Origin: a phage
DNA: 51,474 bases
Sequence record: PZ445410.1
Reading direction: 5' to 3' (one strand)
Shown here in pieces: positions 2,654 through 36,103 of this stretch. Each line of letters opens with the position of its first letter. The stretch's first letter is position 1. Position numbers and translations under genes: made by a program. Under the pieces are notes generated by a model. That model had not been told where the DNA came from and did no database searches. It saw only the letters and a list, made by a program, of their open reading frames with translations.

Positions 2654-2693
2654 CACGAATTGCTAAAAGCGGGGCACAATGCCTCGCTATAAT
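2651..2693 (+). promoter_or_regulatory. TAGCAC-box promoter-like cassette (variant TAGCACGAATTGCTAAAAG; TATAAT at 2688-2693)
   Basis: TAG of motif is the kinase stop codon. Confidence 0.45.
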
Positions 2694-2723
2694 ACAAACA
2701 CCAATCAACGAGAGGAAATCATC

Positions 2724-3125
2724 ATGGTAGAGTTAAACGACATTCGCGTTGGGACAAAATTTCGCGTAACCTGGGCAGATAAATATTGCGGAGTTAGCAA
2801 GGGCCAGATTGTTACTGTGGATAGTATTTATCGCGGATGCAGCAAAGACTTTCGGCGCCCACGCATCAAGAATGGCTATATCATTACTCGCCGTTTTGGG
2901 TTTGATCATTATTGCGTAGTGTCAACTCAAGGCGCTTTGATTGAGCTTAAGCGAATAAGCGATCATCGCGGCTGTCATGTTAAGACAATGAAAACACCAT
3001 TTCAGCGAGCGCGATACGATGCGCGACGGATGCGCCGACTTGCTCGAAATGCGATCAAGTTCAAAAAGCCTGGCAGTAATTTTTACAGAATGTACAAAGG
3101 GATTGCGCGAAATGCTGGGAAATAA
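2724..3125 (+). CDS. hypothetical protein (133 aa), basic C-terminus
   Basis: Internal ATG with GAGAGGAAA RBS. Confidence 0.55.
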   Translation: MVELNDIRVGTKFRVTWADKYCGVSKGQIVTVDSIYRGCSKDFRRPRIKNGYIITRRFGFDHYCVVSTQGALIELKRISDHRGCHVKTMKTPFQRARYDARRMRRLARNAIKFKKPGSNFYRMYKGIARNAGK

Positions 3126-4899: not shown

Positions 4900-4969
4900 T
4901 TAAAATTGAATGCCTCATACAGCGAACAGGACGCATTTTGACGAGGCATTTTTTAGGTAAGGTGATTCA

Positions 4970-5098
4970 ATGGATAGCTACATAAAACCGTCGCAGTGGT
5001 GCGCACAGAAGCAAGAGGAAGCATTGGAGCGCGGCGATACTGAAACAGCAATGCACTATTTCGAAATGTACAACTTGTGGAAGGGTAGAGGTCTGTAA
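4970..5098 (+). CDS. small hypothetical protein (42 aa), not in ORF track
   Basis: AGGTGA RBS; TAATG overlap with next gene. Confidence 0.3.
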   Translation: MDSYIKPSQWCAQKQEEALERGDTETAMHYFEMYNLWKGRGL

Positions 5099-5328
5099 TG
5101 TTTGGAATGAATGAGGCGCAATTCAACGCTGCAAAACGCCAGGCTAAGAAGTGCGGCGAGGCAATGAAGGCGGATGTTGAAAAGCGCGGGAAGTATGTTG
5201 ATGAAGTCATGAAGGGCATTATTGCCGAACATTATCAGCCAGTTGCGCCAATGCTGACAATTACCCAATTCATCTGGTTGTGTGGTTATCTTCGTGGGAG
5301 ATGGGGAAACGCATTTGACCGCGAATGA
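5098..5328 (+). CDS. hypothetical protein (76 aa)
   Basis: ORF. Confidence 0.5.
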   Translation: MFGMNEAQFNAAKRQAKKCGEAMKADVEKRGKYVDEVMKGIIAEHYQPVAPMLTITQFIWLCGYLRGRWGNAFDRE

Positions 5329-5357
5329 TTGACAACGATTTCCTGATTGGTTAGCAT
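5329..5357 (+). promoter_or_regulatory. sigma70-type promoter (TTGACA, 17 nt, TAGCAT)
   Basis: Near-consensus -35 and -10 with 17-nt spacer. Confidence 0.5.
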
Positions 5358-5363
5358 ATTCAA

Positions 5364-5464
5364 CGTTTACATAAGAGCGGCATTAGTGCCGAACGGGTGG
5401 CGCGGTTGCCACGCAACAACGGCGATATGCAGGTTTTTACCGTAAGACGTATCGCCTTTTTTTT
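5364..5464 (+). ncRNA. candidate small non-coding RNA (~100 nt) between promoter and intrinsic terminator
   Basis: No ORF longer than 14 codons; GTGGC..GCCAC stem and terminal GGCGATA..TATCGCC stem followed by T8. Confidence 0.25.
5421..5464 (+). terminator. intrinsic terminator
   Basis: GGCGATA...TATCGCC stem then TTTTTTTT. Confidence 0.5.
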
Positions 5465-5476
5465 ATAGGTGAATAT

Positions 5477-5710
5477 ATGGAAAAGTACAAATTAACTTTC
5501 ATGTTTAATAGCATGGTGATGAATCCATTAAATGGTTACGCTTGCAATAGCTTTTCTGTTACCGTTAATGAGGATGAAATTGATGATGATGGAAAACTCA
5601 TTCGAATTGGTGAATACTTGTACCCCGTTCACAATATCAATTGCATCAAACGCGAGATCGTAAAAGATGAAGTACAAGGTAAGGTTGACGATCAGGCGAA
5701 TGGGGCGTAA
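5477..5710 (+). CDS. hypothetical protein (77 aa)
   Basis: ORF. Confidence 0.45.
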   Translation: MEKYKLTFMFNSMVMNPLNGYACNSFSVTVNEDEIDDDGKLIRIGEYLYPVHNINCIKREIVKDEVQGKVDDQANGA

Positions 5711-5852
5711 TTGCTCGTCATGTAGACAAAGTTTTGAATGTGAGGTTGAAGCGCGCGGAGAGCTTGAGGCAGCAGCAAGAGCAAAAGAGTTGTCCGGCGC
5801 TAATCAAGACACTCACCAGTTTTCAATAGATCTTGTAAGGAAAATGTCATGA
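5667..5852 (+). CDS. small Cys-rich hypothetical protein (start uncertain)
   Basis: Track ORF; CSSCRQSFEC. Confidence 0.3.
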   Translation: MKYKVRLTIRRMGRNCSSCRQSFECEVEARGELEAAARAKELSGANQDTHQFSIDLVRKMS

Positions 5853-6088
5853 GTTCTGTAATTATTGGTTTGGTTGCTTTAATCATTGGTGTTCTAATCG
5901 GCTTTGTTGCTGTATCTTTCGTGGTGGCTGTCGGTGTTCGCTATAAGTCAAAAAAAGGTGAATTTGCTTTAGCGTTTTGGGATGAAGAACAGAAAGTTTG
6001 GCAGGTTCGCGGTCACTATTTATCAATCGGTGGCAGGATTCACAGCACTATGAAGACAAATCCAGAAAAAGTAAAATACAAGTATTGA
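5849..6088 (+). CDS. membrane protein (79 aa, one TMD)
   Basis: IIGLVALIIGVLIGFVAVSFVVAV hydrophobic stretch. Confidence 0.5.
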   Translation: MSSVIIGLVALIIGVLIGFVAVSFVVAVGVRYKSKKGEFALAFWDEEQKVWQVRGHYLSIGGRIHSTMKTNPEKVKYKY

Positions 6089-6094: not shown

Positions 6095-6118
6095 ACCCGC
6101 CAAATGGCGGGTTTTTTA
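6095..6118 (+). terminator. intrinsic terminator
   Basis: CCCGCC-AAAT-GGCGGG then TTTTTT. Confidence 0.55.
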
Positions 6119-6168: not shown

Positions 6169-6690
6169 ATGGCTAAAAACGTTGAGCCAGCAGTAAAGGC
6201 TTGCAATTTTAAAAAACTATATAATAAGAAATATGGCGATATAGCAAAAATGACAAAGGCGCACAAGTACACGCCGGAGCAGGTATTTGATCTGGCTGTT
6301 CGTTACTTTACGTGGGCTGAGGAAAACCATATACAGGCTGCGGAAACGGCATCCTTTCAGGGTGACGTATACGAAAGCAAGATTCACAAGCCGCGCGTGT
6401 TCACCTTAAACGGATTCCGATTATTCGCTGGCCTTTCTGCTTCCGTGCTTGAAAAATGGCGACGTGAGCCAGGATTCAGCGATGTTATGGACTTTATCGA
6501 CGGCGTTGTTTACGAGCAAAAATTCCAGCTTGCCGCAAACAATATTGTTAACGCCGGATTCATTGGTAAAGAGATCGGCATTGAAAAGCCAGCTACCGTT
6601 ACCATTGAGAATAACACAAGCGCCAGCGTTGACGCTGTAACGGCGGAGGAAGTCAAAGAGGCGGTAATTGACATTCTGGAGAAGATATAA
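6169..6690 (+). CDS. terminase small subunit (putative)
   Basis: 173-aa ORF immediately upstream of and overlapping the large terminase; AAAGGAGGG RBS; track N-terminal extension rejected. Confidence 0.55.
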   Translation: MAKNVEPAVKACNFKKLYNKKYGDIAKMTKAHKYTPEQVFDLAVRYFTWAEENHIQAAETASFQGDVYESKIHKPRVFTLNGFRLFAGLSASVLEKWRREPGFSDVMDFIDGVVYEQKFQLAANNIVNAGFIGKEIGIEKPATVTIENNTSASVDAVTAEEVKEAVIDILEKI

Positions 6691-8258
6691 TGCTGATTTG
6701 GGAAGACTTAACAGCGGCGCAAAAACGCGCCATTAAGGAAATGAGCGAATATTCATTCGAAAAGATGATCCGCATTTGGTTTCAACTTCTCCAGGGGCAA
6801 AGGTTCTTAGGAAACTGGCATTTCAGTTACCTATGCAGCGAAGTTGAAAAAATCATCAAAGGCGAGTCACAGAATGTAATTTTCAACATAACGCCAGGCA
6901 GCGGTAAAACAGAGATATTCTCGATCCACATGTCACCTTATGCGTCATTGAAAAGTAAGAAGGTGAGAAATCTTAATTTGTCGTTTAGTGATGGCCTTGT
7001 CCAGCAGAACAGCAACCGCATCAAAGAGATTATTGGTTCTCCAGAATGGCAGGAGCTATGGCCTGGAAAGCTGGCAAAGGCGAGCGCAAAGGATTTGATT
7101 GTAACCGATGGCGGCAAGGTTAAATTGCAAGTTAACTCGCGATCAATTGGTGGTCAGGTTACTGGTCTGCGTGGCGGCTACATGGACGATGGTTTTACTG
7201 GTATGTTGGTTCTTGATGATCCAGACAAGCCGGATGACATGCTTTCTAAGGTGAAGCGCGAAGCCGGACACATGCGCCTAAAGAACACGGTGCGATCGCG
7301 TCGAATGAAAGACACTACGCCAATTGTGATGGTTCAGCAACGTCTACACGTCAATGATTCAACATGGTTCATGACAAACGGCGGCATGGGCGGCATCCAG
7401 TTTAAGGTGGTCAGTATTCCAGCGCTCGTTACTAAGGAATATCGCGAAACTCTTCCTGATTGGTTAAAGCCTGAGTTTGATCGCGATGTTTTGTCCAGTA
7501 AGCCAGTGATGATTGATGGCGTTGCTCATTATTCATTCTGGCCTGCTAAGGAAAGCGCTGAGGAATTACTTGCACTTCGCAATGCTGATCCGTACACGTT
7601 CGCTAGTCAGTATCAGCAACAGCCTGTTGCGCTTGGCGGTAACGTGTTTAAAACAGAGTGGTTTCAGTATTACGGCAGCAGCGAGAAATGCACGCTACCA
7701 AAACCGGATCGCTTTGAATATACATTTATCACGGTTGATACCGCGCAGAAAACAGGTGAGCTTAACGACTACTCCGTGATCTGTTATTGGGGGATGTATA
7801 AAGATCGCGTTTACTTCATTGATGGTGTTCGCGGAAAATGGGAAGCACCAGACCTTGAGAATAATTTTGTTGCGTTCGTTAATCAGTGCTGGAAGCGCAA
7901 TAAAGAATGCGGAACGTTGCGAAGGATTCATGTTGAAGATAAGTCATCTGGCACTGGCTTGATTCAGAGTGCAGCGAAAAAAATCATGATCAAGATCAAT
8001 CCCGTTCAGCGCGATAAAGACAAGGTTACTCGCGCAATGGACGCAGCGCCAGTAATGCGCGCCGGACGCGTAGCACTTCCAGAATCGCATCCTATGCTGG
8101 CTGAGATACTAGCTGAAGTTGCGGCGTTTACATTCGATGATAGCCATCCTCATGATGATATTGTTGATAACATCATTGATGCGGTTAACATTGAAATGAA
8201 CATGGCAGATGATCCGGTTGGAAGAATGAAAAAATTGGCAGGTTTGCGGAACAAATAG
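6690..8258 (+). CDS. terminase large subunit
   Basis: 522 aa, GSGKT P-loop-like motif, directly upstream of portal. Confidence 0.75.
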   Translation: MLIWEDLTAAQKRAIKEMSEYSFEKMIRIWFQLLQGQRFLGNWHFSYLCSEVEKIIKGESQNVIFNITPGSGKTEIFSIHMSPYASLKSKKVRNLNLSFSDGLVQQNSNRIKEIIGSPEWQELWPGKLAKASAKDLIVTDGGKVKLQVNSRSIGGQVTGLRGGYMDDGFTGMLVLDDPDKPDDMLSKVKREAGHMRLKNTVRSRRMKDTTPIVMVQQRLHVNDSTWFMTNGGMGGIQFKVVSIPALVTKEYRETLPDWLKPEFDRDVLSSKPVMIDGVAHYSFWPAKESAEELLALRNADPYTFASQYQQQPVALGGNVFKTEWFQYYGSSEKCTLPKPDRFEYTFITVDTAQKTGELNDYSVICYWGMYKDRVYFIDGVRGKWEAPDLENNFVAFVNQCWKRNKECGTLRRIHVEDKSSGTGLIQSAAKKIMIKINPVQRDKDKVTRAMDAAPVMRAGRVALPESHPMLAEILAEVAAFTFDDSHPHDDIVDNIIDAVNIEMNMADDPVGRMKKLAGLRNK

Positions 8259-12019: not shown

Positions 12020-12042
12020 GGCGCTCACTGAGCGCCTTTTTT
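12020..12042 (+). terminator. intrinsic terminator
   Basis: GGCGCTC-ACTG-AGCGCC then TTTTTT. Confidence 0.55.
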
Positions 12043-12504: not shown

Positions 12505-12532
12505 TTGCACGTTTAACAAAAAATGCTATCAT
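12505..12532 (+). promoter_or_regulatory. sigma70-type promoter (TTGCAC, 16 nt, TATCAT)
   Basis: Hexamers with 16-nt spacer; spacer contains a reverse-oriented partial TAGCAC-box (TTAACAAAAAATGCTA). Confidence 0.4.
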
Positions 12533-16207: not shown

Positions 16208-16232
16208 CAAGGGGCGTTGCGCCCCTTTTTTT
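16208..16232 (+). terminator. intrinsic terminator
   Basis: GGGGCG-TTG-CGCCCC then T7. Confidence 0.7.
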
Positions 16233-16246: not shown

Positions 16247-16289
16247 ATGATACACGATTCATAATCAATTCTTTTAACAAAAAGTGCTA
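16247..16289 (-). promoter_or_regulatory. TAGCAC-box cassette in reverse orientation (TATCAT at canonical spacing)
   Basis: Exact reverse complement of the motif 15 nt upstream of the G gene ATG; points into the 16208-16232 terminator. Confidence 0.3.
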
Positions 16290-16303
16290 TCAAGGAGAAA
16301 GAA

Positions 16304-21551: not shown

Positions 21552-22128
21552 ATTATCTGGATCTTTAGGCCGAAGATTTGGAGTATTTCATAAGCTGGCT
21601 GTTGATTCATACCCCGAAGCAATACGCGCACTATCTTCGCAGGTGGAAGGATTCAAGGACTACATGCAAAGCGAAGTAGGATCGCGAATGCGTTATGCTG
21701 TATTTGTTGACGGTAATAATGTAGGACAGCACGATGAAAAATCGTGGCAATGCGCAAAGGAAGTGAGGATTATTCCAATCCCAACAGGTTCAAAGTCTGG
21801 CGGGTTGTTTCAGGTTGTTCTTGGCGCGGTTATTATGGCGACTGCATTTTTCACTGGCGGCGCTTCACTTGCTTTGATGGGCGCTTTTGCATCTTCTGCT
21901 TTCATGATGGGTGGTGCTATGGTGCTTGGCGGAGTAATGCAAATGATTTCACCGCAGCAAGGAGGATCAAGATTGTCCTCACAGTCAGCAGAAAACAAAC
22001 CGTCTTATGCTTTCGGTGGCGCTGTTAACACAACGGCAGCAGGATACCCAATACCATTGCCATATGGTCAAAGGACCGTTGGGGGAGCTATCTGGTCGGC
22101 TGGCAGCTATGCAGAAGATAAGGCTTAA
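21532..22128 (+). CDS. tail assembly protein (lambda gpI-like)
   Basis: 198 aa, Gly/Ala-rich hydrophobic C-terminal half, between K and J. Confidence 0.55.
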   Translation: MTLKVIKLSGSLGRRFGVFHKLAVDSYPEAIRALSSQVEGFKDYMQSEVGSRMRYAVFVDGNNVGQHDEKSWQCAKEVRIIPIPTGSKSGGLFQVVLGAVIMATAFFTGGASLALMGAFASSAFMMGGAMVLGGVMQMISPQQGGSRLSSQSAENKPSYAFGGAVNTTAAGYPIPLPYGQRTVGGAIWSAGSYAEDKA

Positions 22129-22146
22129 TATAAAAGAGTCGCGCGT

Positions 22147-22174
22147 TGCGCGGCTTTTTTTTTGCCCGTATAAT
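22147..22174 (+). terminator. intrinsic terminator
   Basis: GTCGCGCG-TTG-CGCGCGGC then T9. Confidence 0.6.
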
Positions 22175-22208
22175 TCAACAAATCAAATAGCACAAAAGGT
22201 GAAAAAGC

Positions 22209-25200
22209 ATGGCTGAAAATATGATAACGGGCAGTAAGGGTGGATCATCAAAACCTTATGTGCCGAAAGAGATGGAAGATAACCTGATCTCAATCAACAA
22301 AATCAAAATCCTTCTTGCCGTTTCCGATGGTGAGTGCGATCCAGATTTCACGCTTCGCGATCTGTATCTCGATGATGTTCCGGTAATTGCAGATGATGGA
22401 ACTGTTAACTATCAGGGTGTGAAAGCTGAATTTCGACCCGGAACGCAGACGCAAGATTACATCCAGGGGTTTACTGACACATCAAGCGAAGTGACGCTGG
22501 CGCGTGACATTACGACGACAAATCCTTATGTAATTTCCGTAACCAACAAAACATTATCGGCTATCAGAATCAAAATGCTAATGCCAACAGGCATTAAGCA
22601 AGAGGATAACGGCGATCTTGTCGGCGTTAAGGTTACTTATGCTGTTGATATGGCTGTTGACGGAGACTCTTACAAAGAGGTATTGCTAGACACTATCGAA
22701 GGTAAAACGCGTTCCGGTTACGACAGAAGCCGGAGGATTGACCTTCCGGCATTTAATGATCGCGTATTACTTAGGGTTAGAAGGGTTACGGCAGACAGCA
22801 CATCTTCTCGTGTTACTGATCTGATTAAACTACAAAGTTACGCTGAGGTTATTGATGCAAAATTCCGTTATCCTCTGACTGGTCTTGTTTACGTTGAATT
22901 TGACAGCGAATTGTTCCCAAATCAGATCCCTAACATTTCAATCAAGAAGAAATGGAAGCTGATTAACGTTCCGAGTAACTACGATCCTGTTTTGAGAGAG
23001 TATCACGGTTCATGGGATGGAACATTCAAAAAAGCATGGTCAAATAATCCAGCATGGGTGCTTTATGACATTATCACAAACCAGCGATATGGATTAGATC
23101 AGCGAGAGCTTGGTGTGCAGGTTGACAAATGGAGTCTTTACGAAGCGGCGCAATACTGCGATCAGAAAGTGCCGGACGGAAAAGGCGGCACAGAGCCGCG
23201 TTATCTATGCGACGTTGTGATTCAAAGCCAGATTGAGGCTTATCAGCTTATTCGTGATATTTGCTCAATCTTCAGAGGCATGAGCTTTTGGAATGGAGAG
23301 AGCTTGTCAATCGTCATTGATAAGCCGCGCGATCCGTCGTACATCTTCACAAATGACAATGTTGTTGATGGTGATTTTCAGTACACAACAGCAAGTGAAA
23401 AGAGCATGTACACGCAGTGCAACGTGACGTTCGATGACGAACAAAACATGTATCAACAGGACGTAGAGGGTGTATTCGACACAGAGGCCGCATTGCGATT
23501 TGGATACAATCCTACAAGCATAACCGCGATCGGATGTACACGCAGGAGTGAGGCTAATCGGCGCGGTCGATGGATACTAAAAACCAACTTGCGCAGCACT
23601 ACGGTAAACTTTGCTACTGGACTGGAAGGCATGATCCCATCAATAGGTGATGTGATTGCTATTGCTGACAATTTTCACAGCAGCAACCTTAAATTAAACC
23701 TATCAGGGCGCGTGATGGAAGTTTCCGGCTTGCAGGTGTTCGTTCCGTTTAAGATTGACGCGCGACCAGGTGATTTCATTATCATCAACAAGCCGGACGG
23801 AAAGCCAGTTAAGCGCACAATCTCAAAAGTAAGCGGTGACGGAAAAACCATTGAACTAAACATTGGGTTTGGGTTTGAAGTTAAACCTGACACGGTTTTT
23901 GCAATCGACCGCACTGATATTGCATTGCAGCAATACGTTGTAACGAGTATCGGCAAAGGTGATGATGATGATGAATTTACATACTCCATCACGGCTGTTG
24001 AATATGACCCTAACAAATACGACGAGATTGATTATGGAGTAAACATTGACGACAGGCCAACTTCAATTGTCCAGCCTGACACAATGGCAGCGCCTGAAAA
24101 TGTGCAAATATCCTCATACTCGCGAATTGTCCAGGGTGCAAGCGTTGAGACAATGGTTGTGTCGTGGGATAAAGTACCTTACGCATCGCTGTATGAAATG
24201 CAATGGCGAAAAGGTGATGGCAACTGGCTGAATACACCACAGACCGCAAACAAAGAAATTGAGGTTGAAGGTATTTATTCAGGAAACTACCAGGTAAGGG
24301 TTAGATCTGTTTCCGCTTCAGGTTCTACGTCTCCGTGGTCCAGAATTGTGACAGCATCACTGACTGGTAAGGTAGGAGAGCCAGGCGCGCCAGTTAACTT
24401 AACCGCATCCGACAATGAAGTGTTTGGCATTCGTGTTAAGTGGGGGATGCCAGAAGGGAGCGGAGACACGGCATACATTGAGCTTCATCAGTCGCCGGAT
24501 GGAACGGCTGAAAACTCAAGCCTGCTAACGCTGATCCCGTATCCACAATATGAATACTGGCACGGTACGCTTCCGGCTGGTCATGTTGTATGGTATCGGA
24601 TCAGGAGCGTAGACAGGATCGGCAACGTTTCCGGTTGGACTGATTTTGTTAGAGGTATGGCTTCAGATGATGTGGAGGCTGTTTTAGGAGATATTCTTGA
24701 TAAGATTTTTGATACTGAAGCAGGTCAGGATCTTAAAGAGAACGCCATTGACAGTGCAAACAAGATAAAGGACCAGGCGCAAGCAATCATCCAGAATGCT
24801 CTTGCTAATGATGCTGATATTAAGTGGACGCGAGTACAAAATGGAAAGCGAAAGGCTGAATATGGTCACGCGCTTGAGCTTATCGCCACAGAGACTGAGG
24901 CGCGAGTTACGCAGATTGAAGAATTGAGGGCGTCAATCGACGAGGATATTGTTTCAAGCATAAAGACAGTGCAGGAGGCTATCGCCACAGAATCTGAAAC
25001 GCGAGCAACTCAAATAAATGCTTTGGATTCAAAATTCACAACTGAAATTGACGGTGTAAAACGCGATACAGCCGCAAGCATTAATCAGGTTAATCAAACC
25101 ATTGCCAATGAGTCAGAAGCGCGCGCGCAGGCCGTTAACGCGCTTGATGCGAAGTTCACAAAGGAGATCGAAGATTTAAACGGAGTCATTAAGACTGAGG

Positions 25201-25787
25201 TTGAGGCTAACATCTCTGAAGTGAAACAGGCTATCGCTAACGAGACAGAGGCAAGGGTGCAGGCTGACCAGGCGTTAACAGCTAAGTTTGGAGACGTTGA
25301 ATCTGCATTAGCTCAAAAACTTGATTCGTGGGCTGGCGTTGATTCGGTTGGCGCTAAGTACGCCATGAAATTGGGCCTTACTTACAACGGGCAGAAGTAC
25401 AGCGCAGGAATGGTAATGCAGCTTTCTCAGAGTTCATCCGGCCTTATCTCGCAAATTTTGTTTGATGCGAATAGGTTTGCGATTATGACTAGCTCGACTG
25501 GCGGAGTGTATACGCTGCCTTTCGTTGTTGAAAATAACCAGGTATTCATCAATAGCTTGTTAGTTAAAAACGGATCAATAAACAATGCGATGATCGGTAA
25601 CTTCATCCAATCAAACAATTACGTTTGGAATCAAACAGGATGGAGGTTGGATAAAAACGGCACGTTTGAAAATTATGGTTCTACTCCTGGAGAGGGAGCC
25701 ATGAAAATGACAAACGAAACGATCAGCGTTAGGGATGCAAACGGCGTTTTGCGTGTTCAGATTGGGCGTATCACAGGTTATTGGTAA
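22209..25787 (+). CDS. central tail fibre / host specificity protein (lambda gpJ-like)
   Basis: 1192 aa after M-L-K-I; FN3-like segments; C-terminal tandem ~35-aa repeats. Confidence 0.8.
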   Translation: MAENMITGSKGGSSKPYVPKEMEDNLISINKIKILLAVSDGECDPDFTLRDLYLDDVPVIADDGTVNYQGVKAEFRPGTQTQDYIQGFTDTSSEVTLARDITTTNPYVISVTNKTLSAIRIKMLMPTGIKQEDNGDLVGVKVTYAVDMAVDGDSYKEVLLDTIEGKTRSGYDRSRRIDLPAFNDRVLLRVRRVTADSTSSRVTDLIKLQSYAEVIDAKFRYPLTGLVYVEFDSELFPNQIPNISIKKKWKLINVPSNYDPVLREYHGSWDGTFKKAWSNNPAWVLYDIITNQRYGLDQRELGVQVDKWSLYEAAQYCDQKVPDGKGGTEPRYLCDVVIQSQIEAYQLIRDICSIFRGMSFWNGESLSIVIDKPRDPSYIFTNDNVVDGDFQYTTASEKSMYTQCNVTFDDEQNMYQQDVEGVFDTEAALRFGYNPTSITAIGCTRRSEANRRGRWILKTNLRSTTVNFATGLEGMIPSIGDVIAIADNFHSSNLKLNLSGRVMEVSGLQVFVPFKIDARPGDFIIINKPDGKPVKRTISKVSGDGKTIELNIGFGFEVKPDTVFAIDRTDIALQQYVVTSIGKGDDDDEFTYSITAVEYDPNKYDEIDYGVNIDDRPTSIVQPDTMAAPENVQISSYSRIVQGASVETMVVSWDKVPYASLYEMQWRKGDGNWLNTPQTANKEIEVEGIYSGNYQVRVRSVSASGSTSPWSRIVTASLTGKVGEPGAPVNLTASDNEVFGIRVKWGMPEGSGDTAYIELHQSPDGTAENSSLLTLIPYPQYEYWHGTLPAGHVVWYRIRSVDRIGNVSGWTDFVRGMASDDVEAVLGDILDKIFDTEAGQDLKENAIDSANKIKDQAQAIIQNALANDADIKWTRVQNGKRKAEYGHALELIATETEARVTQIEELRASIDEDIVSSIKTVQEAIATESETRATQINALDSKFTTEIDGVKRDTAASINQVNQTIANESEARAQAVNALDAKFTKEIEDLNGVIKTEVEANISEVKQAIANETEARVQADQALTAKFGDVESALAQKLDSWAGVDSVGAKYAMKLGLTYNGQKYSAGMVMQLSQSSSGLISQILFDANRFAIMTSSTGGVYTLPFVVENNQVFINSLLVKNGSINNAMIGNFIQSNNYVWNQTGWRLDKNGTFENYGSTPGEGAMKMTNETISVRDANGVLRVQIGRITGYW

Positions 25788-25794
25788 AAGCAAA

Positions 25795-25821
25795 GGGAGG
25801 CGCATTGCCTCCCTTTTTTTA
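25795..25821. terminator. bidirectional intrinsic terminator
   Basis: GGGAGGC-GCATT-GCCTCCC flanked by A-run and T-run. Confidence 0.7.
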
Positions 25822-26713
25822 TTAGTCATATTTTGATGCGTCTATAGCAAGTATTGATGAAGAATAATAAACCCCAAGCGGACCAGGCGTTTGAGCAACC
25901 TGCTTTGATATTGAGTAAATATTTGATCCAGATGCGCCGGATTGTGATTCAAATATCATGTGACCGCCAAGTTGAGGATTTGGAACGGAGTTTATTGCCG
26001 TTTGAAATGGCGTTACAGCGCATGTATAACCCAAATAAACATCAAATGTTATTCCGCTAACTGGTATTTGGTGAGCCTCTAAAGGCTTCATTTTTCCGTG
26101 GTATGTCATTTGACCAGCGGAATTATAAAACGCTATTCCGTGACTACCAGGACTTGTTACCATATCGCTAAAAGCGTAAACCCTAATCCATCCAGGGTTG
26201 TCCGTCCTATCAATCCTAAGTGCATGATAACCACCATTATTTATGTGAGAAAAAGCAGTGTATGCACGAGATCCCATTCTCACAAAGAAAAAGCATACAC
26301 GATCAAATGGTATTGATGTTTGATAAATGGAGCCGTTATAAACCCCCATATCACCTCGATTAATTAAATTCACAGGCGTAAAATCAGGACTTAGCCAAAT
26401 TGACCCATCCGGCTTTGTGATCTGCATTCCGTACATGTTACCCCCAAAACGTATATATATATCTTGACTCGCCAGCATTAAGACCAGACCACGAAACAGT
26501 ATTCCCGCTAACGTTTATTGTTGGTGCTCCCCAGTTAACTCCAGCCCACGTCTGCGTTCCAATATATCCAGCCTTTAATGTTTTTCCTGGCGGCTGATTG
26601 TAATATGTCTTGCTTCCTGATGGTTGTGTGAATCTATCCAGGAAGAATACAGGAGTTAATAAACCAGTAACATCCCTTCCTTGTTCGTCGTAAATTGCGT
26701 AACCGTATGCCAT
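25822..26713 (-). pseudogene. frameshift-interrupted gene (fragments 26438..26713 and 25822..26478); function unknown
   Basis: Two ORFs overlap by 41 nt in different frames at a C5/G5 tract (26441-26445); removing one G fuses them into about 299 aa; upstream fragment is coupled (TAATG) to the lipoprotein gene. Confidence 0.4.
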
Positions 26714-26982
26714 TATTTGCACTCCACATAATCAAAATTATCCTCGCTTTGCCACCTGTGAACGAAAGTTACATATTTTTGTGATGGAGCTACGCGATAG
26801 TGTTTTTCACCGAATCTGTTTTCGCGCACAGCGTTTATTTTCACAGGATAGCTATCATTTACAGGGAATGTTTTCACCATGTATGAGCCAACGCAATCAA
26901 CCTCTTTATAGCCCCCATCCATTGACGCAGAACAACCAGTCAGGGCAACGGCGGCAATCAAAACGGCTATTAACTTTTTCAT
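26713..26982 (-). CDS. outer-membrane lipoprotein, Cor/Llp-like superinfection exclusion candidate
   Basis: Signal peptide MKKLIAVLIAAVALTGC with lipobox; 89 aa; just downstream of the J gene on the opposite strand. Confidence 0.5.
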   Translation of the reverse strand: MKKLIAVLIAAVALTGCSASMDGGYKEVDCVGSYMVKTFPVNDSYPVKINAVRENRFGEKHYRVAPSQKYVTFVHRWQSEDNFDYVECK

Positions 26983-27013
26983 TTTGGTGTCTCCTTAGTT
27001 GTTGTTGGTTGCA

Positions 27014-27055
27014 ACTATACACGATCTTGCGGTGGGCGTTTAGCAAAAAGTGCCA
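27014..27055 (-). promoter_or_regulatory. TAGCAC-box variant (TGGCACTTTTTGCTAAACG) with TATAGT
   Basis: Motif at canonical spacing, oriented toward the lipoprotein gene. Confidence 0.4.
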
Positions 27056-27119
27056 TTCTGTTCTTTTTGTTCTCCTGCGTTCTCAAATCTGCGGAGGCTT
27101 AAATTTAGCTCAAAATGTG

Positions 27120-27330
27120 AGCAACAATAGAGCGATATACATACAGATAAATATATATACATACATATAAATCAATAAGTTAGTAGTATATATATTTATA
27201 TTTGTTCTTTATTGTTATCTATGTTTTGTGTGATTTTGTGTGTCTGGTGATTTTTCTGTGATTATGTATGTGTCAGTGGTTGTGTGTGTCTATATATCTA
27301 TATCCGGCGCAAATTGAGGAACAAGAGAAC
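27120..27330. repeat. AT-rich, C-depleted iteron-like element, copy A
   Basis: Shares AAATCAATAAGTTAGT...TATTTATATTTGTT core and GT-rich GGTGAT/GTGAT word repeats with 49265-49480. Confidence 0.6.
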
Positions 27331-27359
27331 AAAAAGACAACAAAGATATTTATCAATCA

Positions 27360-27373
27360 CTTACATGTAAGTT
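27360..27373. promoter_or_regulatory. perfect 14-bp palindrome ACTTACATGTAAGT (operator-like)
   Basis: Perfect dyad 55 nt upstream of the exonuclease promoter -35. Confidence 0.35.
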
Positions 27374-27427
27374 TTGTTATCAAAGATGTCTAGAACGTTG
27401 TTAGAACAGAAAAAACAAAATAACTAT

Positions 27428-27455
27428 TGACTAAACGCATCAAATAGCTACAATG
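27428..27455 (+). promoter_or_regulatory. sigma70-type promoter (TTGACT, 16 nt, TACAAT)
   Basis: Near-consensus hexamers; A/T-rich upstream region. Confidence 0.55.
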
Positions 27456-27483
27456 CAGACATACCAACCAATGAGGGCAAATC

Positions 27484-28545
27484 ATGAATAAGTTTATGGC
27501 GTACACCAGCGAAGAAATGAGCAACGAGCTTTATCACAATCCAGAAGCGTGGACTGCTGATTATGTTAGCGGTTCAAGCCTGGCAGAGATTTACAGCACA
27601 TGCCCGGCAGCGTGGAAGTTCAAGCCGCGTGACGACAAGAGCAAGGCGCTAGTTTTTGGTACGCAGTCGCATACCAATTTTGAAAGCAAGGAGCTTTTCG
27701 AAAAAACCTATCGCCGTGCGCCAGCGCCAGAAGACTTTAAGGATCTGATAACCAGCCAAACGGCGCTTGCTGCAAAGCTAAAATCATTTGGCCTGAAAGG
27801 TACAACAGGAAAGACTTACCCTGAACTTATAAAAATGTTGGTTGACTGCGGAGAAGACCTTAACGTCATGTGGTTAATCGACATGATCGCAGAAAGTCAA
27901 GCCAGGGCCGATGGGGTTCAGTTAATCGAAGCTAAAGATTACGATGCGTGCGTGGCAATGCGCCAGGTTCTGGAATCAATACCGGAACATAACGCATGTA
28001 TGAATAGCAAGACGGCACAACGTGAATTATCGTTATTCGGTGAAATCAACGGCGTAAAAGTCAAAGTGCGATGCGATCACGTTGACGTAACAAAGAACGT
28101 GACAGCAACTCTTATTGATGGTTACGATGAAAAAGGTCAGCCGATTTGCCGCGATATTATTTATCCAGAAGCTATTGTGATCACTGACTACAAAACAACA
28201 ATGAGCGCTAATCCGGTTGAGTTTATGCGCCTGGCTTACAATCACGGCTATTATTTGAAAATGGCGTTGCAATGTGATTTATTCAGAAAAGCGTATCCAG
28301 AAGAAAAGCGACCTATAGTTGTGCGACTGTTAGCGCAAGAGAAGAAAGAGCCTTATTTGCCGTTGGCTTTTCGCATGAATAGCGAGCAATTAAAGATCGG
28401 GCGCATTCAGTACATGAGCGTGATTAACCAGTTTGCCATGTGCCAGCAGCATGACGTTTGGCCTTCGTATTCAAACGGTGAGCCGGAGGTTTGCCTTGAT
28501 ACTCCTGATTGGGTGCGCCGCCAGTTTAAGCAATATCTTATTTAA
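27484..28545 (+). CDS. RecB-family PD-(D/E)XK exonuclease (recombination exonuclease)
   Basis: RCDHVDV and VITDYKTT nuclease motifs; followed by Erf-like and SSB genes. Confidence 0.6.
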   Translation: MNKFMAYTSEEMSNELYHNPEAWTADYVSGSSLAEIYSTCPAAWKFKPRDDKSKALVFGTQSHTNFESKELFEKTYRRAPAPEDFKDLITSQTALAAKLKSFGLKGTTGKTYPELIKMLVDCGEDLNVMWLIDMIAESQARADGVQLIEAKDYDACVAMRQVLESIPEHNACMNSKTAQRELSLFGEINGVKVKVRCDHVDVTKNVTATLIDGYDEKGQPICRDIIYPEAIVITDYKTTMSANPVEFMRLAYNHGYYLKMALQCDLFRKAYPEEKRPIVVRLLAQEKKEPYLPLAFRMNSEQLKIGRIQYMSVINQFAMCQQHDVWPSYSNGEPEVCLDTPDWVRRQFKQYLI

Positions 28546-28626
28546 ACAGCACAAATAGCTAAACAAATGAAAAATGCGGTGTTATAATTCACAGCATAAG
28601 TTAACAGTAAACGAGAGGAAATAAAT

Positions 28627-28908
28627 ATGGAAAACAATAAATCAGTATCAGCGGTAGCAGTTCACATCAATAATTTTGCCACTGGCATGGCTATGTTGCT
28701 TCGTGATTTTGTAGCGCCGCTTGACCCAACGGCAGGCGCAGAAGAAATGGAGTACATCAGAAAAGTAATGGATGCAGTCGATAACGTCATACTTATTGCA
28801 ACAATGAGCGAAGACAACGAGGAAGCAATCAAGGCGGTAAAAGAAAGTTCCGATCGCATGATGGAAAATCTGATTAAATTACACACCAAAGAAGAAACAA
28901 AACATTAA
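28627..28908 (+). CDS. hypothetical protein (93 aa)
   Basis: ORF with GAGAGGAAATAAAT RBS. Confidence 0.5.
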   Translation: MENNKSVSAVAVHINNFATGMAMLLRDFVAPLDPTAGAEEMEYIRKVMDAVDNVILIATMSEDNEEAIKAVKESSDRMMENLIKLHTKEETKH

Positions 28909-28953
28909 CAGCAATAAGGCGGCGAAAGCCGCCATTAATTACGGGAATTAATC

Positions 28954-29610
28954 ATGAAACTATCAGAGCAATTCGACAAGGTTTTACCAGCACTGCATAA
29001 GGCGCGTAGTTTGTTTGTAAAGGTGAAGAAGGATAAGCAAAATACGCACCTTAAAAACCGTTACGCAACACTTGATGCCGTACTTGATGCAATCACTCCA
29101 GCATTGAACGATAACGAGCTAATGTTGATGCAGGATATGATTGAAAGCGAACAACCTAACAGAATCAAGGTTGAGACAACAGTTCTTCATGTTTCTGGTC
29201 AGTGGGTTAAATTTTACGCAGAGCTACCAATCGTCAAAAACGATCCTCAAGGCGTCGGATCTGCATTCACATACGCGCGTCGTTATGCAGCCGCAGCAGC
29301 ATTTGGCTTAAGCCAGGCAGACGATGATGCACAAATTGCTGTTAAATCTGCAAACGACTGGAAACGTGACATTGAGAAATGCGAGAGCGTAAACGAATTG
29401 CAAGAAGTGCTAAAATCAGCATGGAAGGCAAGCGATCCGGCAAGCAAGCAGGTAATTAAAGAGCATTACGAAAAGCGCAAGGCAGAGCTTGAGATCGGCA
29501 AAGCACGAGGATTTAATCCAGCGCAACCAAAGCAAAATCTTGCCTCGCCAGAAGTTGACACAAAAAACGACGAGCAAGTAAAATCACAAAGTATCACTGA
29601 TTTTGAATAA
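28954..29610 (+). CDS. ERF-family single-strand annealing protein (putative)
   Basis: [12 protein letters not shown] motif as recalled for Erf proteins; between exonuclease and SSB. Confidence 0.55.
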
Positions 29611-29654
29611 TTGACATGGGGCGCTTGCGCCCCTTTCTTACAGGAGTATAAAAC

Positions 29655-30107
29655 ATGCATATTATTACTGGTGAGATCCGAAAAGAGCCGCGAGTAAAGC
29701 AAATGCCTAACGGCAGCACACTTTATGTAGTTGAACTTCCAGAGCGATACAAAGATAAAGATGGAAACTGGCAATATACAAACTACAGTTTCTTTTTTAA
29801 TGCTAAAACAGAAGGTATTAAGGGTTGGTATGATGAGGCGTTCCAGGTTGGCAAGGTTATTTCTGTATCTTGCGACACTCTGCGCATTGAAACGCGAGAA
29901 TACAACGGAAAGATGTATTCAAGTTTAATGCCAGGAGGATTTGCAAATCTTATCTTCAGTCAGCGCGGGGAAAGCCAGCAACAATATCAGCAGCGAACGC
30001 AATGGGGATGGGGCCAACCACAACAACAGAATCAACCGCAACAACCGCAACAGCCAAGACAAAGCAATCAGCCACCTATGGATTTTGACGACGACATCCC
30101 TTTTTGA
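29655..30107 (+). CDS. ssb: single-stranded DNA-binding protein
   Basis: OB-fold-like N-terminal region, Gln/Pro-rich linker, C-terminal tip DFDDDIPF as in E. coli SSB. Confidence 0.85.
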   Translation: MHIITGEIRKEPRVKQMPNGSTLYVVELPERYKDKDGNWQYTNYSFFFNAKTEGIKGWYDEAFQVGKVISVSCDTLRIETREYNGKMYSSLMPGGFANLIFSQRGESQQQYQQRTQWGWGQPQQQNQPQQPQQPRQSNQPPMDFDDDIPF

Positions 30108-30111
30108 TCAG

Positions 30112-30136
30112 TAAAGGGGCATTACGCCCCTTTTTC
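30112..30136. terminator. bidirectional intrinsic terminator
   Basis: AGGGGC-ATTAC-GCCCCT flanked by A/T runs. Confidence 0.65.
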
Positions 30137-30379
30137 ACCCTCAGCCATCCCAAGAACAGCAATCACCTTAACAGCAATTCGCTTTGCAAGTTCAGTTTGA
30201 TGAGCGTTCAGCTTTCCAGTGGTCATTATTGACAACATTCCGCTCATACTTCCAAGCCCGTTAAAATCTGACATTGCCGATTTCATGATTGATATTGGTG
30301 AGTGACCCTCATCAGCTATTGTGTGCGCTCTCTCTGACAGGTCTTTAACTACCTGAGCAATTCCTTCACTTTTCGTCAT
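30122..30379 (-). CDS. hypothetical protein (85 aa)
   Basis: ORF, last gene of a minus-strand operon. Confidence 0.45.
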   Translation of the reverse strand: MTKSEGIAQVVKDLSERAHTIADEGHSPISIMKSAMSDFNGLGSMSGMLSIMTTGKLNAHQTELAKRIAVKVIAVLGMAEGEKGA

Positions 30380-30857
30380 TTGCTTTTCCTTCAGGAGTTG
30401 ATTGCTGTTCTGGCATTACAGGCCACGGGCTAATTGATTCCCTTTCTGCTACTGGCTTTTCAGGTTCAATTCCTAAAAACTTTCCTACAAACTCACCAAC
30501 AAAATTTGAGCTATCGCTTACATAAACATGCATCCTGTCTAGATCTGCAACAGTAACGCTATTTGGTGCGATCATGATCCTCTGTTGGTGAAAACCGATA
30601 TACATCACATTAGCCGGACGCTCAAGAGTCCCCATATTTGGCGCAATTACGCCCATTATCCAACAATAATGAATGTTGCCATCAAGCGGCTCACATCCAG
30701 CGTTAAGCCAGTTTACTTTCTGGTGAGGAAACGCCATTGATGAATCAGTAGCATCACGCCGTAACGACCATTTAACTCCGCCAATCTCAATGATTTGTTT
30801 CGGCCTCATCCCGTTGAATTGAGTCACGCCAGCGCCATTTTGATTAATGTTTTGCAT
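30366..30857 (-). CDS. hypothetical protein (163 aa)
   Basis: ORF. Confidence 0.5.
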   Translation of the reverse strand: MQNINQNGAGVTQFNGMRPKQIIEIGGVKWSLRRDATDSSMAFPHQKVNWLNAGCEPLDGNIHYCWIMGVIAPNMGTLERPANVMYIGFHQQRIMIAPNSVTVADLDRMHVYVSDSSNFVGEFVGKFLGIEPEKPVAERESISPWPVMPEQQSTPEGKANDEK

Positions 30858-30871
30858 ATCGGTTAACCTTT

Positions 30872-31195
30872 TTACATTGATTTCATTTTACGCAATGCGC
30901 AGATACAAGCGGCAGCAAGATCGGTTAATTCTTTCTCAATGCCATGATGCGAGCCGTCTGCCTTTTCGGTCATTAGCTCTTTGTATTCCATTTCTACAAT
31001 CGACATTAAGCCGCCTGGCTTGTCAATGTGCGCGTCCCAGGTTTTAGGATAGTGCTTAGTTCTTTCCATAACACTTCCCATAACTGAATCATGTTTGCTA
31101 TCTCGCTCATAATCATCATCATGATCATCACTCCCGATTGAAACTCGCGGCAAATGAATGCGCGGTATTTTATAGCCAGCATAACGGATCTTCAT
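30872..31195 (-). CDS. hypothetical protein (107 aa); weak MazG-like resemblance
   Basis: GAGGGTGAGATA RBS; EMEYKEL...IEKELTDL pattern; preceded by a hairpin. Confidence 0.45.
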   Translation of the reverse strand: MKIRYAGYKIPRIHLPRVSIGSDDHDDDYERDSKHDSVMGSVMERTKHYPKTWDAHIDKPGGLMSIVEMEYKELMTEKADGSHHGIEKELTDLAAACICALRKMKSM

Positions 31196-31244
31196 TATCT
31201 CACCCTCTTGATGAAAAGCGCCCCGAAAGGCGCTTGATTTATTA

Positions 31245-31946
31245 TCAGCCGCAACAGCCAGTAGGCGGAGTCTGAGGAGTAGGCAACTTGAAGTTTACCA
31301 ATTGCTCTACCTGGTTGATTTTGCAATTCAGTGCGGCGGTCTGGTTTGCCTGAGATAGAGCAAAACGCGCTTCCTGCAACTGAGCTTTCATATCGCAAAT
31401 CAAAACAGCCTGAGAATCAGCAAACTGTTGACGAATCAGATCTCGCGTTGCGTTACCTTGTCGCTCAATGTTCAGGTTAGTCTCGCAGCAACATCTTTCG
31501 GCTGCAATCTGCGCCTGATAGGAACGCTCAAGAGCATTAACATCAGCAGCATTAATCGCAGCAACTGTCTGGTTAGTACCGCTAACAATCGCGGTATTCA
31601 GTCCGGCAAAACCTTGCACCGATGCAAGCAGGCTTTGCGTATTCTGGCTGGTAATGCCGTTAAATGTTGATGCGGCGGAGCGCTCAACGGTAAGGTTTGT
31701 GGAGTTTTGGCCTTGCAGAGTTTGCAGCCCCAGGTTGTTTACGCCTGTCTGGATGTTATTAATACCATCAAGAACAGCGTTAGCACCGACAGCAACAGCA
31801 GCACCATCACCACCATAACCACCACGACCATTAAAGCCATTACCAAACCAAGACCCAATCAGGCCACCAACAGCACCGCCAAGACCAGCCGCGCCAGCTT
31901 CGCCACCAAAACCACCACCAGTAGGGAGTAAAGTCATATCTGACAT
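31245..31946 (-). CDS. glycine-zipper protein with Cys-rich C-terminus (233 aa)
   Basis: N-terminal GGGFGGEAGAAGLGGAVGGLIG; Q/N/T-rich middle; CCCE and terminal TGCCG; own AT-rich upstream region. Confidence 0.5.
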   Translation of the reverse strand: MSDMTLLPTGGGFGGEAGAAGLGGAVGGLIGSWFGNGFNGRGGYGGDGAAVAVGANAVLDGINNIQTGVNNLGLQTLQGQNSTNLTVERSAASTFNGITSQNTQSLLASVQGFAGLNTAIVSGTNQTVAAINAADVNALERSYQAQIAAERCCCETNLNIERQGNATRDLIRQQFADSQAVLICDMKAQLQEARFALSQANQTAALNCKINQVEQLVNFKLPTPQTPPTGCCG

Positions 31947-32115
31947 AGTAAATTCCTCTTTGACGTTAAAAAAATTAAAAAAAAGTTTGTAACATTTGCG
32001 TTACGACAAATAGTATGCGCCTAACTGTCAGGAATAGATATAAAGAATTTGTAAGCGATATGTCAGCAACTGGCATAAAGGCGAAAAAAGGCGCAGCCTG
32101 AGCCGCGCCTTGTGA

Positions 32116-32793
32116 TTAAATGTTGTTATTTTTTATTGATTCAATTTGGCTTTTTAATTGCTCTATTTCTTCTTTCATCCGTTTCACATGATGAATTAGC
32201 GGAACAACCAAACGCTCATACATAACGCCTTCTGCAACCATGCCATTGCTTGAGGCGATTTCTGGATCATCACCTTCTTGTAATGGCCTCCAGTGAACGT
32301 ATTCAGACGCAATCTCTCCAACTTCTTCGGCGATCAGTCCATACCAACCCCAATCTTTTCTGTCATTCTCGCAAATCGACCGATACCAGACAGGACGCAT
32401 GTCAAACATTCGATCTGCATATTCATCCATAACAGTTTCAACAGATCTTTTGTATCTTTCGGAAGACGTTGAACGAAGAACGCTTGACACTGCGGCATCT
32501 GGATTGAGATACAAGTTTGCGCCAGCGGTTGTTGTTCCAAGTCTAAAAAAGTAAACGGCCTCTTGTGCTGTTAATGGGTAAAAGTTTCCGCTATGTGTTC
32601 CGCCCTCTAATTCATTTGAAAGCTCGCTTTTCTTCATGTACGTCTTTAACTTGTTGTCAACGTCAGAGCTTGATGGCTTTGTGTTAACTTCTTGCTGCAA
32701 CGTGGAAACATTGCCTTGCAACGTGGAAACATTGCCTTTTAAAGCAGTTATATCAGCCGGAATATTTGTTACGGTAGCCATGATTAAGCCCAC
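32116..32793 (-). CDS. short tail-fibre-like protein carrying a C-terminal S74 intramolecular-chaperone domain
   Basis: SSERYKRSVE (compare SDERLK-type cleavage motif), WGWYGLIAEEVGEI and terminal coiled coil resemble the fibre chaperone domain as I recall it; only ~110 aa precede it. Confidence 0.5.
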   Translation of the reverse strand: MGLIMATVTNIPADITALKGNVSTLQGNVSTLQQEVNTKPSSSDVDNKLKTYMKKSELSNELEGGTHSGNFYPLTAQEAVYFFRLGTTTAGANLYLNPDAAVSSVLRSTSSERYKRSVETVMDEYADRMFDMRPVWYRSICENDRKDWGWYGLIAEEVGEIASEYVHWRPLQEGDDPEIASSNGMVAEGVMYERLVVPLIHHVKRMKEEIEQLKSQIESIKNNNI

Positions 32794-33062
32794 TCCCTAA
32801 GTTTTTGATCCGTCACAACGGTTCTGCTATTGAATAATTTCGCATCGTAATTATCATTAATGATGCGAGCGTTCACAAAATAACCATCATTTTTCTCTAC
32901 AATTTCCTCTCCTTCTTCCGTTACAGATACAACAGTGTAAGTGTTCCCGATAACGTCGAGAAGAATTGCATCCTGAATGGATTCGTTTTCGTTCCATTCA
33001 ATTTCTTCAAGAAAGGCAGAAAACTCTGCCTTGTCTGCAAATTTCAGTGTTAAATCTCTCAT
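32784..33062 (-). CDS. hypothetical protein (92 aa), possible fibre assembly factor
   Basis: ORF coupled between fibre gene and S74-domain gene. Confidence 0.4.
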   Translation of the reverse strand: MRDLTLKFADKAEFSAFLEEIEWNENESIQDAILLDVIGNTYTVVSVTEEGEEIVEKNDGYFVNARIINDNYDAKLFNSRTVVTDQKLREWA

Positions 33063-35017: not shown

Positions 35018-35073
35018 GCGTTTTCTCCCATGTTGTATGTTAATGTCAATGCAGATAATAGCATTTGACAAGG

Positions 35074-35098
35074 CAAAAAAAAACCCCGCAATGCGGGG
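35074..35098 (-). terminator. intrinsic terminator (minus strand)
   Basis: CCCCGC-AAT-GCGGGG preceded on the plus strand by A9. Confidence 0.65.
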
Positions 35099-35115
35099 TA
35101 AAGTAGCAGTGACAT

Positions 35116-36048: not shown

Positions 36049-36103
36049 ATACACCTCAAACAAAAAAGCCTGACAGATGATAACATCATGCCAGGCATTG
36101 TTT

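Follow-up and report, generated by a model that had tools for sequence, protein, structure and literature searches.

A conserved structured leader RNA at the entry to the late genes of T1-like phages

Results

Gene content around the leader

The window analysed here (51,474 nt, 51.5 kb; PZ445410.1) is the complete genome of a T1-like siphophage belonging to Drexlerviridae, Tempevirinae, Hanrivervirus. Its segment 4900-5900 shares 96-98.6% identity with related phages of Escherichia and Shigella such as phiE31-2, Henu8 and pSf-1, the last of which is classified in Drexlerviridae, Tempevirinae, Hanrivervirus. Twenty records deposited as 'UNVERIFIED Campylobacter phage' (MG0656xx, e.g. locus L004) are also Hanriverviruses, about 95% identical to the window, and their host label is doubtful.

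The leader under study (Table 1) is preceded on the + strand by genes for a PNK-type phosphatase, a dNMP kinase and a series of small early-type genes, and is followed on the same strand by three small genes (5477-6088) and the genes of the small and large terminase subunits, TerS and TerL. TerS, which starts at about 6169 and was assigned to PHROG 606, is the sole downstream gene identified with a tool; the large + strand ORFs up to 25787 are taken to be the portal, head and tail (structural) genes. Judged by the gene content on either side, the placement of the element between an early block and the late operon, which had been proposed from the letters of the DNA, is fair.

The gene immediately upstream encodes a 76-aa protein with about 47% identity to Ipe of the temperate phage mEp021 (locus L014, 626-877). 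Ipe stands for 'inducer of pleiotropic effects', and homologues occur in 834 phage records, mostly T1-like (Drexlerviridae), plus mEp021. The GenBank record on mEp021 Ipe describes peptides toxic to E. coli and a role in a haemolytic phenotype; speculatively, the Ipe phenotype would fit a general effect on transcription termination or silencing. The AF2 model of the 76-aa protein is a confident small helical bundle (pLDDT 90.8), generic in shape and with uninformative structural neighbours, and sequence searches of Pfam, PHROG and PDB were uninformative too, with no match to a Q or N family. By its position only, the Ipe-like protein is a candidate trans factor, and in Tunavirus and Webervirus the Ipe homologue is one to three genes distant from the leader element. 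Further upstream, a second long-loop hairpin followed by U6 was observed at 4908-4957 (+; -12.9 kcal/mol, z -2.5), ahead of a 42-aa gene at 4970-5098 and the Ipe-like gene, so that these two genes lie between two terminators without a recognisable promoter of their own.

Table 1 Features of the leader, its surroundings and the late transcription unit (positions in the window)
Feature	Position	Strand	Remark
Upstream 76-aa gene, homologue of T1p59 and mEp021 Ipe	5098..5328	+	stop codon abuts the -35 hexamer
-35 hexamer TTGACA	5329..5334	+	TTGAC invariant in 60 distinct promoter variants of relatives
Spacer motif CTGATTGG (CTGAYYGG in relatives)	5343..5350	+	directly upstream of the -10 hexamer
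-10 hexamer TAGCAT	5352..5357	+	TAnnnT form in almost all of the 60 variants
Unpaired conserved 5' segment CGUUUACAUAAGAG	5364..5377	+	
Hairpin H1 (CGGCA-UUAG-UGCCG)	5378..5391	+	some 14 unpaired nt precede it
Linker AACGG (AACGCG in most relatives)	5392..5396	+	A30, A31, G33 and G35 of alignment A4 invariant
Hairpin H2 (GUGGC-GCGGUU-GCCAC)	5397..5412	+	loop GCGAUA-like in relatives
Hairpin H3, terminator stem	5421..5456	+	outer 9 bp 5421-5429/5448-5456, arms GGCGAUAUG/CGUAUCGCC
T8 (U-tract) of intrinsic terminator	5457..5464	+	
Ribosome-binding site (GGUG) and ATG of first downstream gene (5477-5710)	5468..5479	+	4-13 nt past the T-run
Next intrinsic terminator of the same transcription unit	6095..6117	+	just before the small terminase gene; first of seven more up to 25816
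Large terminase (TerL)	6690..8258	+	
Copies of repeat ATAGCACnnnTTGnTAAAA	363, 1348, 2650, 3995, 36591, 39109, 40150, 50385, 50848	+	
Copies of repeat ATAGCACnnnTTGnTAAAA	27056, 36120, 43414, 45582, 46258, 48125, 49002	-	

Promoter and transcription start

The homologous region was gathered from 21 GenBank phages and 80 IMG/VR contigs, with the upstream 76-aa gene as the anchor. The near-consensus sigma70 promoter that the sequence-only reading had reported was located exactly where it had been placed, and it is kept in 60 distinct variants, with a 17-bp spacer in the window and in 58 of the 60. TTGACA-17-TAGCAT scores 10/12 in a promoter scan; within 20 kb, 25 matches at this score were observed versus 33.7 expected in shuffles. 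Because shuffles give more such sites, the 10/12 match is not significant alone, and the case for the promoter rests on conservation and covariation among relatives.

Within the spacer, TGATTGG is invariant in alignment A1, Webervirus has CTGACCGG and Tunavirus has CTGAGCGG; the motif could represent an extended -10-like G or a regulator site. The 5-6 nt from the -10 hexamer to a CGU vary freely among the 60 variants, and conservation restarts exactly at the CGU. Transcription is predicted to start at 5363-5365, and conservation from the predicted +1 onwards is what a function at the RNA level would lead one to expect.

Two covarying hairpins behind a conserved unpaired segment

Within the 5' segment, ACAUAAGA is invariant in Tempevirinae, takes the form ACAYAMGAG family-wide and occurs a single time in the window; most lineages also have an SD-like AAGAGG there. 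The internal stems claimed earlier correspond to H1 and H2 and do covary, and a comparison across relatives, which had been suggested as a check, extended this to all three hairpins of the leader. The modelled H1 stem (5378-5381/5388-5391) has compensatory changes at 4/4 pairs, with stem variants such as CGGC/GCCG, CAGC/GCUG, GCUC/GAGC, UGUG/CACA and GCGG/CCGC; its loop ranges from 4 to 8 nt among relatives, and the window adds a fifth pair, 5382-5387. All 5 pairs of H2 are 100% paired in 47 distinct sequences, 4/5 with compensatory changes.

Alignment A4 of H1 and H2 holds 21 sequences from Hanriver-, Warwick-, Henuseptima-, Tls-, Tuna- and Kyungwonvirus. In this alignment 96.8% of the cells of the two stems are paired, compared with 25-51% after shifting the 3' partners by 1-3 columns, compensatory double changes are found at 8/9 pairs, and the observed covariation score was reached by 0 of 500 shuffles. 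RNAalifold independently predicts the same two helices. The larger set of 47 distinct sequences gives 98.2% pairing in an alignment that was fitted to the model, so that its counts lean towards structure. A covariance model built from the 21-sequence alignment, R1, has a single match in the window, at 5363-5418 (+; 69.5 bits, E 6e-18); of 100 related loci, 82 have one match each, without exception on the gene strand, and the weaker scores are those of Webervirus and Rogunavirus, whose 5' segments differ. As a whole, the 101-nt RNA folds at -33.0 kcal/mol (z -2.1), compared with -28.1 kcal/mol (z -1.3) for the reverse strand.

A promoter-proximal terminator in the lineage of the window

The stem and T8 terminator that had been described some 60 nt downstream of the promoter is H3, which begins 63 nt past the -10 hexamer (-15 kcal/mol, z -4.3) and whose 9-bp stem is followed immediately by U8, as expected of an intrinsic terminator; it escaped a consensus terminator scan solely on account of a loop of more than 8 nt. 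H3 also has a short inner stem (5432-5433 with 5440-5441) and, on its 3' side, a conserved unpaired CCGUAAGAC at 5440-5448, with GUAAGACG invariant. Across 14 distinct sequences from Tempevirinae, pairing in the outer stem is 100%, and 5/9 of its pairs show compensatory changes. In some relatives a 17-nt insert lengthens the tip of H3 as a longer stem, and in the closest genera (Hanriver-, Warwick- and Henuseptimavirus) the T-run varies from T4 to T8. H3 with its U8 shares the defining hairpin and U-tract of an ordinary intrinsic (Rho-independent) terminator. In contrast to such a terminator, H3 has an internal loop (UAAGA) that is asymmetric and conserved, varies at its tip and is situated 60 nt past its own promoter and 4 nt before a ribosome-binding site.

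The terminator is less widespread than the elements before it. Tunavirus, Tlsvirus, Rogunavirus and Sauletekiovirus lack a U-tract and keep H1 and H2, and in the first three the promoter is kept as well. The last hairpin of the leader in these lineages bears a conserved CCGUAA loop, and the RNA continues from it straight to the first gene. In Webervirus, H1 is joined only by an H2 that resembles a terminator. The constant core is thus the promoter, the 5' segment, H1 and H2, and the terminator is lineage-specific. In Tunavirus and Tlsvirus (Shfl1, L018 1470-1505; Sazh, L016) the loop of the final hairpin reads (A)CCGUAA, a motif that is also embedded in H3 of the window, and a small hairpin after it partly sequesters the first gene's Shine-Dalgarno sequence. 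For one subgroup, that of BEK7 and the 'Campylobacter phage' records (L004, L005), homology stops in the T-run, at about 5461; the terminator coincides with a mosaic recombination junction, beyond which this subgroup has a different first gene. Since the first downstream gene is swapped in this subgroup and the leader is kept, the promoter and leader behave as an autonomous module.

Non-coding status and RNA-family scans

The longest ATG-initiated ORF of the element has 13 codons (5427-5468), and TTG and GTG starts give 32 and 23 aa. The ATG result agrees with the earlier statement that no ORF exceeds 14 codons, and the frames from TTG/GTG starts are broken by indels in relatives. A coding reading was rejected because the short ORFs are interrupted among relatives by a 2-nt loop deletion, the 17-nt insert and the T4-T8 variation. 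The tRNA and Rfam scans recommended in the sequence-only reading were run and yielded no family: ARAGORN found 0 tRNA or tmRNA genes in the whole window, Rfam 15 gave no match at the gathering threshold in the window, and at E<=10 the region 5250-5550 returned just two snoRNA noise matches of about 10-12 bits.

A cis-acting leader rather than a small RNA gene or an attenuator

A gene for a trans-acting small RNA would have no downstream dependants, and here the ribosome-binding site and ATG of the next gene come directly behind the T-run (Table 1). As there is no space for a promoter after the T-run, this gene and those behind it can be transcribed only by read-through. No site complementary to the unpaired motifs ACAUAAGAG and GUAAGACG was found elsewhere in the phage genome. 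The dependence on read-through, the lineages that lack the U-tract, the missing genomic complement of the motifs and the behaviour as a module together favour a cis-acting leader over a small RNA gene.

Likewise, no upstream segment complements GGCGAUAUG, and no mutually exclusive antiterminator pairing was found. The terminator arms change among relatives (AGCGCCGCG, GGUGAUGUG), and the conserved motifs upstream are fixed. A classical attenuator or riboswitch is excluded because the 5' arm of the terminator has no upstream partner and varies while the motifs stay. The earlier alternative of a stand-alone small RNA or a leader/attenuator can be narrowed on these grounds: a structured non-coding RNA with its promoter and terminator is supported by covariation and by the R1 match, a leader is favoured, and the classical attenuator and the independent small RNA gene are not upheld.

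Several other structures were tried and set aside. An alternative antiterminator pairing, a K-turn, a pseudoknot joining the 5' segment to the CCGUAA loop and a reading of the H3 internal loop as an 11-nt tetraloop-receptor were each compared with the variants by eye, and covariation supported none of them. An RfaH ops element was considered as H1 of Webervirus, GGCGGTAAGC, resembles GGCGGTAG; the H1 sequences of the other lineages are unrelated. A replication origin or primer RNA was also rejected, as cumulative GC skew tracks gene orientation and makes no turn near 5.4 kb.

Terminators and promoters of the late operon

Behind the leader, hairpin/T-run terminators occupy intergenic gaps of the + strand at 6095, 8286, 12020, 13563, 16209, 16931 and 20001. 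After most operon terminators the next gene follows within about 5-80 nt, mostly too close for a promoter to lie in the gap, although promoters may lie within coding sequences. The operon-end terminator at 25792-25816 (+) has an unusually long 11-bp stem, a feature reported to confer resistance to processive antitermination (PMC10325885).

A 21-nt repeat, ATAGCACnnnTTGnTAAAA, occurs 24 times in the genome versus 2.9 expected, and nearly every strong copy has a near-consensus -10 hexamer about 18-21 nt downstream (TATAAT, CATAAT or TATAGT), many of the spacers containing a G+C-rich inverted repeat. From this arrangement, the repeat with its -10 looks like the early/middle promoter class of the phage. 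This class serves the early regions, and the + strand of the late region has almost no copies of it. In phage TLS the 21-nt repeats have been reported as unexplained direct repeats. A re-annotation of TLS lists 21 intergenic terminators and only three sigma70 promoters, among which the leader promoter is absent (PMC11447400). Two antisense copies of ATAGCACnnnTTGnTAAAA were observed in the late region, at 12511-12529 (-) and 16272-16290 (-); each faces a bidirectional terminator (12020-12036 and 16209-16227) and could yield short antisense transcripts.

Distribution of the element

The element is present as one copy per phage genome, and H1 and H2 are retained throughout the sampled subfamilies and genera. 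All copies confirmed by R1 lie on phage contigs of about 39-53 kb, the majority of which had entered the analysis earlier as Ipe-homologue (Drexlerviridae-like) loci. In IMG/VR the pattern ACATAAGAG-N9-17-AACGCG gave mostly chance matches. A stricter pattern, applied to 185,579 species of bacteria and archaea at one genome per species, gave one match of 16.8 bits without H1, which is taken to be chance, and 5,426 complete E. coli genomes gave none.

Discussion

A putative elongation-control signal at the start of the late operon

Phages use processive antitermination where one promoter feeds a long operon through many terminators, and it is at the start of the transcript that nut and put signals are found. 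The element most likely controls the read-through of RNA polymerase into the late genes. Our main reading, to which we give a probability of roughly 0.45, is that it may be a late-operon leader combining an antitermination signal (nut/put-like) with a promoter-proximal terminator, as at lambda PR'-tR'. Antitermination is favoured by the single promoter, the 20-kb operon, the eight terminators (H3 and seven more) and the conserved structured RNA at the 5' end. The short gaps behind most of the terminators, the scarcity of the ATAGCACnnnTTGnTAAAA promoter class on the late + strand and the terminator and promoter counts in TLS speak for it as well.

In the course of events that we infer, including the start site, the termination efficiency, the temporal control and the antitermination function, host sigma70 RNA polymerase would start at about 5364, and the nascent RNA would present the unpaired CGUUUACAUAAGAG, then H1 and H2 and, in the lineage of the window, H3 and U8. 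By default, a large share of polymerases would stop at H3/U8 and release an RNA of about 100 nt, and only read-through transcripts would reach the small genes at 5477-6088 and, behind them, the terminase, portal, head and tail genes. The H1/H2 module with the conserved unpaired motifs would serve as the elongation-control (antitermination) signal, acting either alone on its own polymerase (put-like) or via a recruited phage or host protein (nut-like), and the polymerase so modified would read through H3 and then the other seven intergenic terminators in the 20-kb operon.

Several observations argue against antitermination. No antiterminator protein was identified, the upstream 76-aa protein being without a Q or N match; there is no sigma pause element and no + strand boxA, H1 and H2 are short (4-5 bp) compared with the stems of put, and R1 gives no hit in HK022. 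Moreover, terminators in phage late operons can be leaky and thereby set expression ratios, and the -10 hexamer is conserved in a weak form (TAnnnT), so regulation could act at initiation instead.

Comparison with known antitermination systems

The leader resembles known antitermination systems in layout and is homologous to neither nut/put nor lambda PR'-tR'. In the lambda PR'-qut-tR' region, a 194-nt '6S' transcript is made and the antiterminator is Q. The T1-like leader shares with it a sigma70 promoter directly before the late genes, a terminator within about 100-200 nt, a short RNA as the default product, late genes that need read-through and a small phage gene immediately upstream. However, the promoter-proximal terminator is found only in Tempevirinae of the type of the window and, more weakly, in Webervirus, and no Q-family antiterminator was found upstream. 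By inspection, the best hexamers for a sigma-dependent pause within 5364-5395 agree with TATAAT in 3-4 of 6 positions, and none of them has its final T. Conserved covarying hairpins are not, to our knowledge, a known trait of the lambda 6S region; in the T1-like leader no feature is more conserved than the RNA structure. In addition, the T1-like family is virulent and not lambdoid.

HK022 put acts in cis on RNA polymerase, through the beta' zinc-binding domain and without protein factors. Like putL and putR, H1 and H2 are two adjacent stem-loops right after a promoter and upstream of a long terminator-bearing operon, and conserved unpaired nucleotides are found in both systems, those of put contacting the polymerase (PMC9378689). 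In contrast, put is about 70 nt in size and has two long irregular stems, much longer (PMC9378689) than the 4-5 bp hairpins H1 and H2, which lie within about 35 nt. A one-way search of HK022 22000-40751 (immunity and Q regions) with R1, run with filters off, showed no resemblance in sequence or structure, the top score being 5.8 bits (E 1.4). We consider it distinctly unlikely that H1/H2 is a self-sufficient put-like RNA that binds E. coli RNA polymerase and renders it terminator-resistant over the whole 20-kb operon.

With lambda nut (boxA and boxB, N and Nus factors) the leader has in common a conserved single-stranded segment followed by a short 5-bp hairpin near the 5' end of an operon that has terminators to cross. 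H2 is boxB-like in size, with a 5-bp stem and a conserved loop of 5-6 nt; unlike nut, the leader has two hairpins and not one. A boxA of the form CGCUCUUA was sought and rejected, as only the complementary strand reads CGCTCTTA (5380-5373), overlapping ACAUAAGAG, in the wrong orientation and order. Arginine-rich ORFs were scanned for, with 2679-3125 as the only weak genic candidate; it has no family, and no N-like protein of this kind could be named with confidence.

Alternative explanations

The main rival reading is a passive leader with a leaky terminator, in which the promoter would drive the late operon and H3/U8 would only insulate the late genes from early read-through and let a fixed low level of transcription pass. 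H1, H2 and the CCGUAA hairpin would then act in stabilising or processing the mRNA or in translation of the first gene, and not in modifying the polymerase. The hairpins do persist in several genera where the terminator is missing, the last hairpin of Tunavirus and Tlsvirus adjoins a ribosome-binding site that is itself partly sequestered, the SD-like AAGAGG of the 5' segment recurs in most lineages, and leaky intergenic terminators are common in phage late operons. However, the roughly 14 unpaired nt ahead of H1 are not the geometry of a protective 5'-terminal hairpin, and the replacement of the first gene in some relatives that keep the leader shows that the latter is not tied to the translation of one gene. 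Passive passage across eight successive terminators would also let little transcription reach the genes in the second half of the operon, and we regard this explanation as somewhat unlikely. That the RNA of about 100 nt is itself the functional product, a stand-alone small RNA acting in trans on host or phage mRNAs or proteins, seems quite improbable. In the lineage of the window it would be a complete promoter-terminator unit with strong structure, whose conserved unpaired motifs could be seed or protein-binding regions, but H1 and H2 are conserved family-wide and the terminator is not, the downstream gene has no promoter of its own, and neither ACAUAAGAG nor GUAAGACG has a complement in the phage genome.

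The inverted repeats might also belong to the DNA, as operators for a dimeric phage regulator just past the start site, with covariation reflecting the maintenance of palindromes. Diverging palindromic operators also retain reverse-complement symmetry, and CTGAYYGG is conserved inside the promoter spacer. Nevertheless, strand-specific G-U wobble is frequent, with 8 cells in H1/H2 (A4) and 19 in H3 (A5), 27 in total. A-C mismatches, the form that a G-U pair takes on the opposite strand, number 2 in A4, and A5 has no more than 2 non-standard cells; one U-G pair of H3 is kept in 11/14 sequences. The loop of H1, at 4-8 nt, and the 17-nt insert in the tip of H3 fit poorly with a fixed spacing of half-sites, and the three stems have three unrelated sequences. 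The asymmetry between G-U and A-C cells, the better fold of the + strand and the variable loop lengths disfavour a duplex-DNA operator, which we hold to be very improbable.

Novelty and significance

T1 is one of the original T phages, and the element bears on how T1-like phages time and drive their late transcription with an unmodified host polymerase. No description of the element was found in the literature on late transcription and terminators of T1, T1-like phages and Drexlerviridae; this coverage did not extend to the original T1 genome paper, which may mention the promoter or terminator. In our view the element is a structured leader RNA that is new and specific to the family, occupies a familiar regulatory position and has a putative mechanism. 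A single, family-wide and structurally constrained RNA at the entry to the late genes offers a concrete and easily mutated handle. If it is a true antitermination signal, it would add an RNA family to a very short list (nut, put and EAR) and could supply a compact, portable read-through element for engineering in E. coli; if it is truly put-like, it would be a second, unrelated family of protein-independent antiterminator RNAs, common to the whole of Drexlerviridae including T1.

Even if the element is only a leader with an insulating terminator, its recognition defines the late promoter of the family and corrects mis-annotated public coding sequences. A 303-nt coding sequence starting inside the leader and terminator is annotated in pSf-1 (gp57; L001 1707-2009) and egaa (gp61; L002 807-1109). 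This frame is open in pSf-1 and egaa only because they have T6 instead of T8, and the annotation is probably a mis-annotation of a 77-aa gene.
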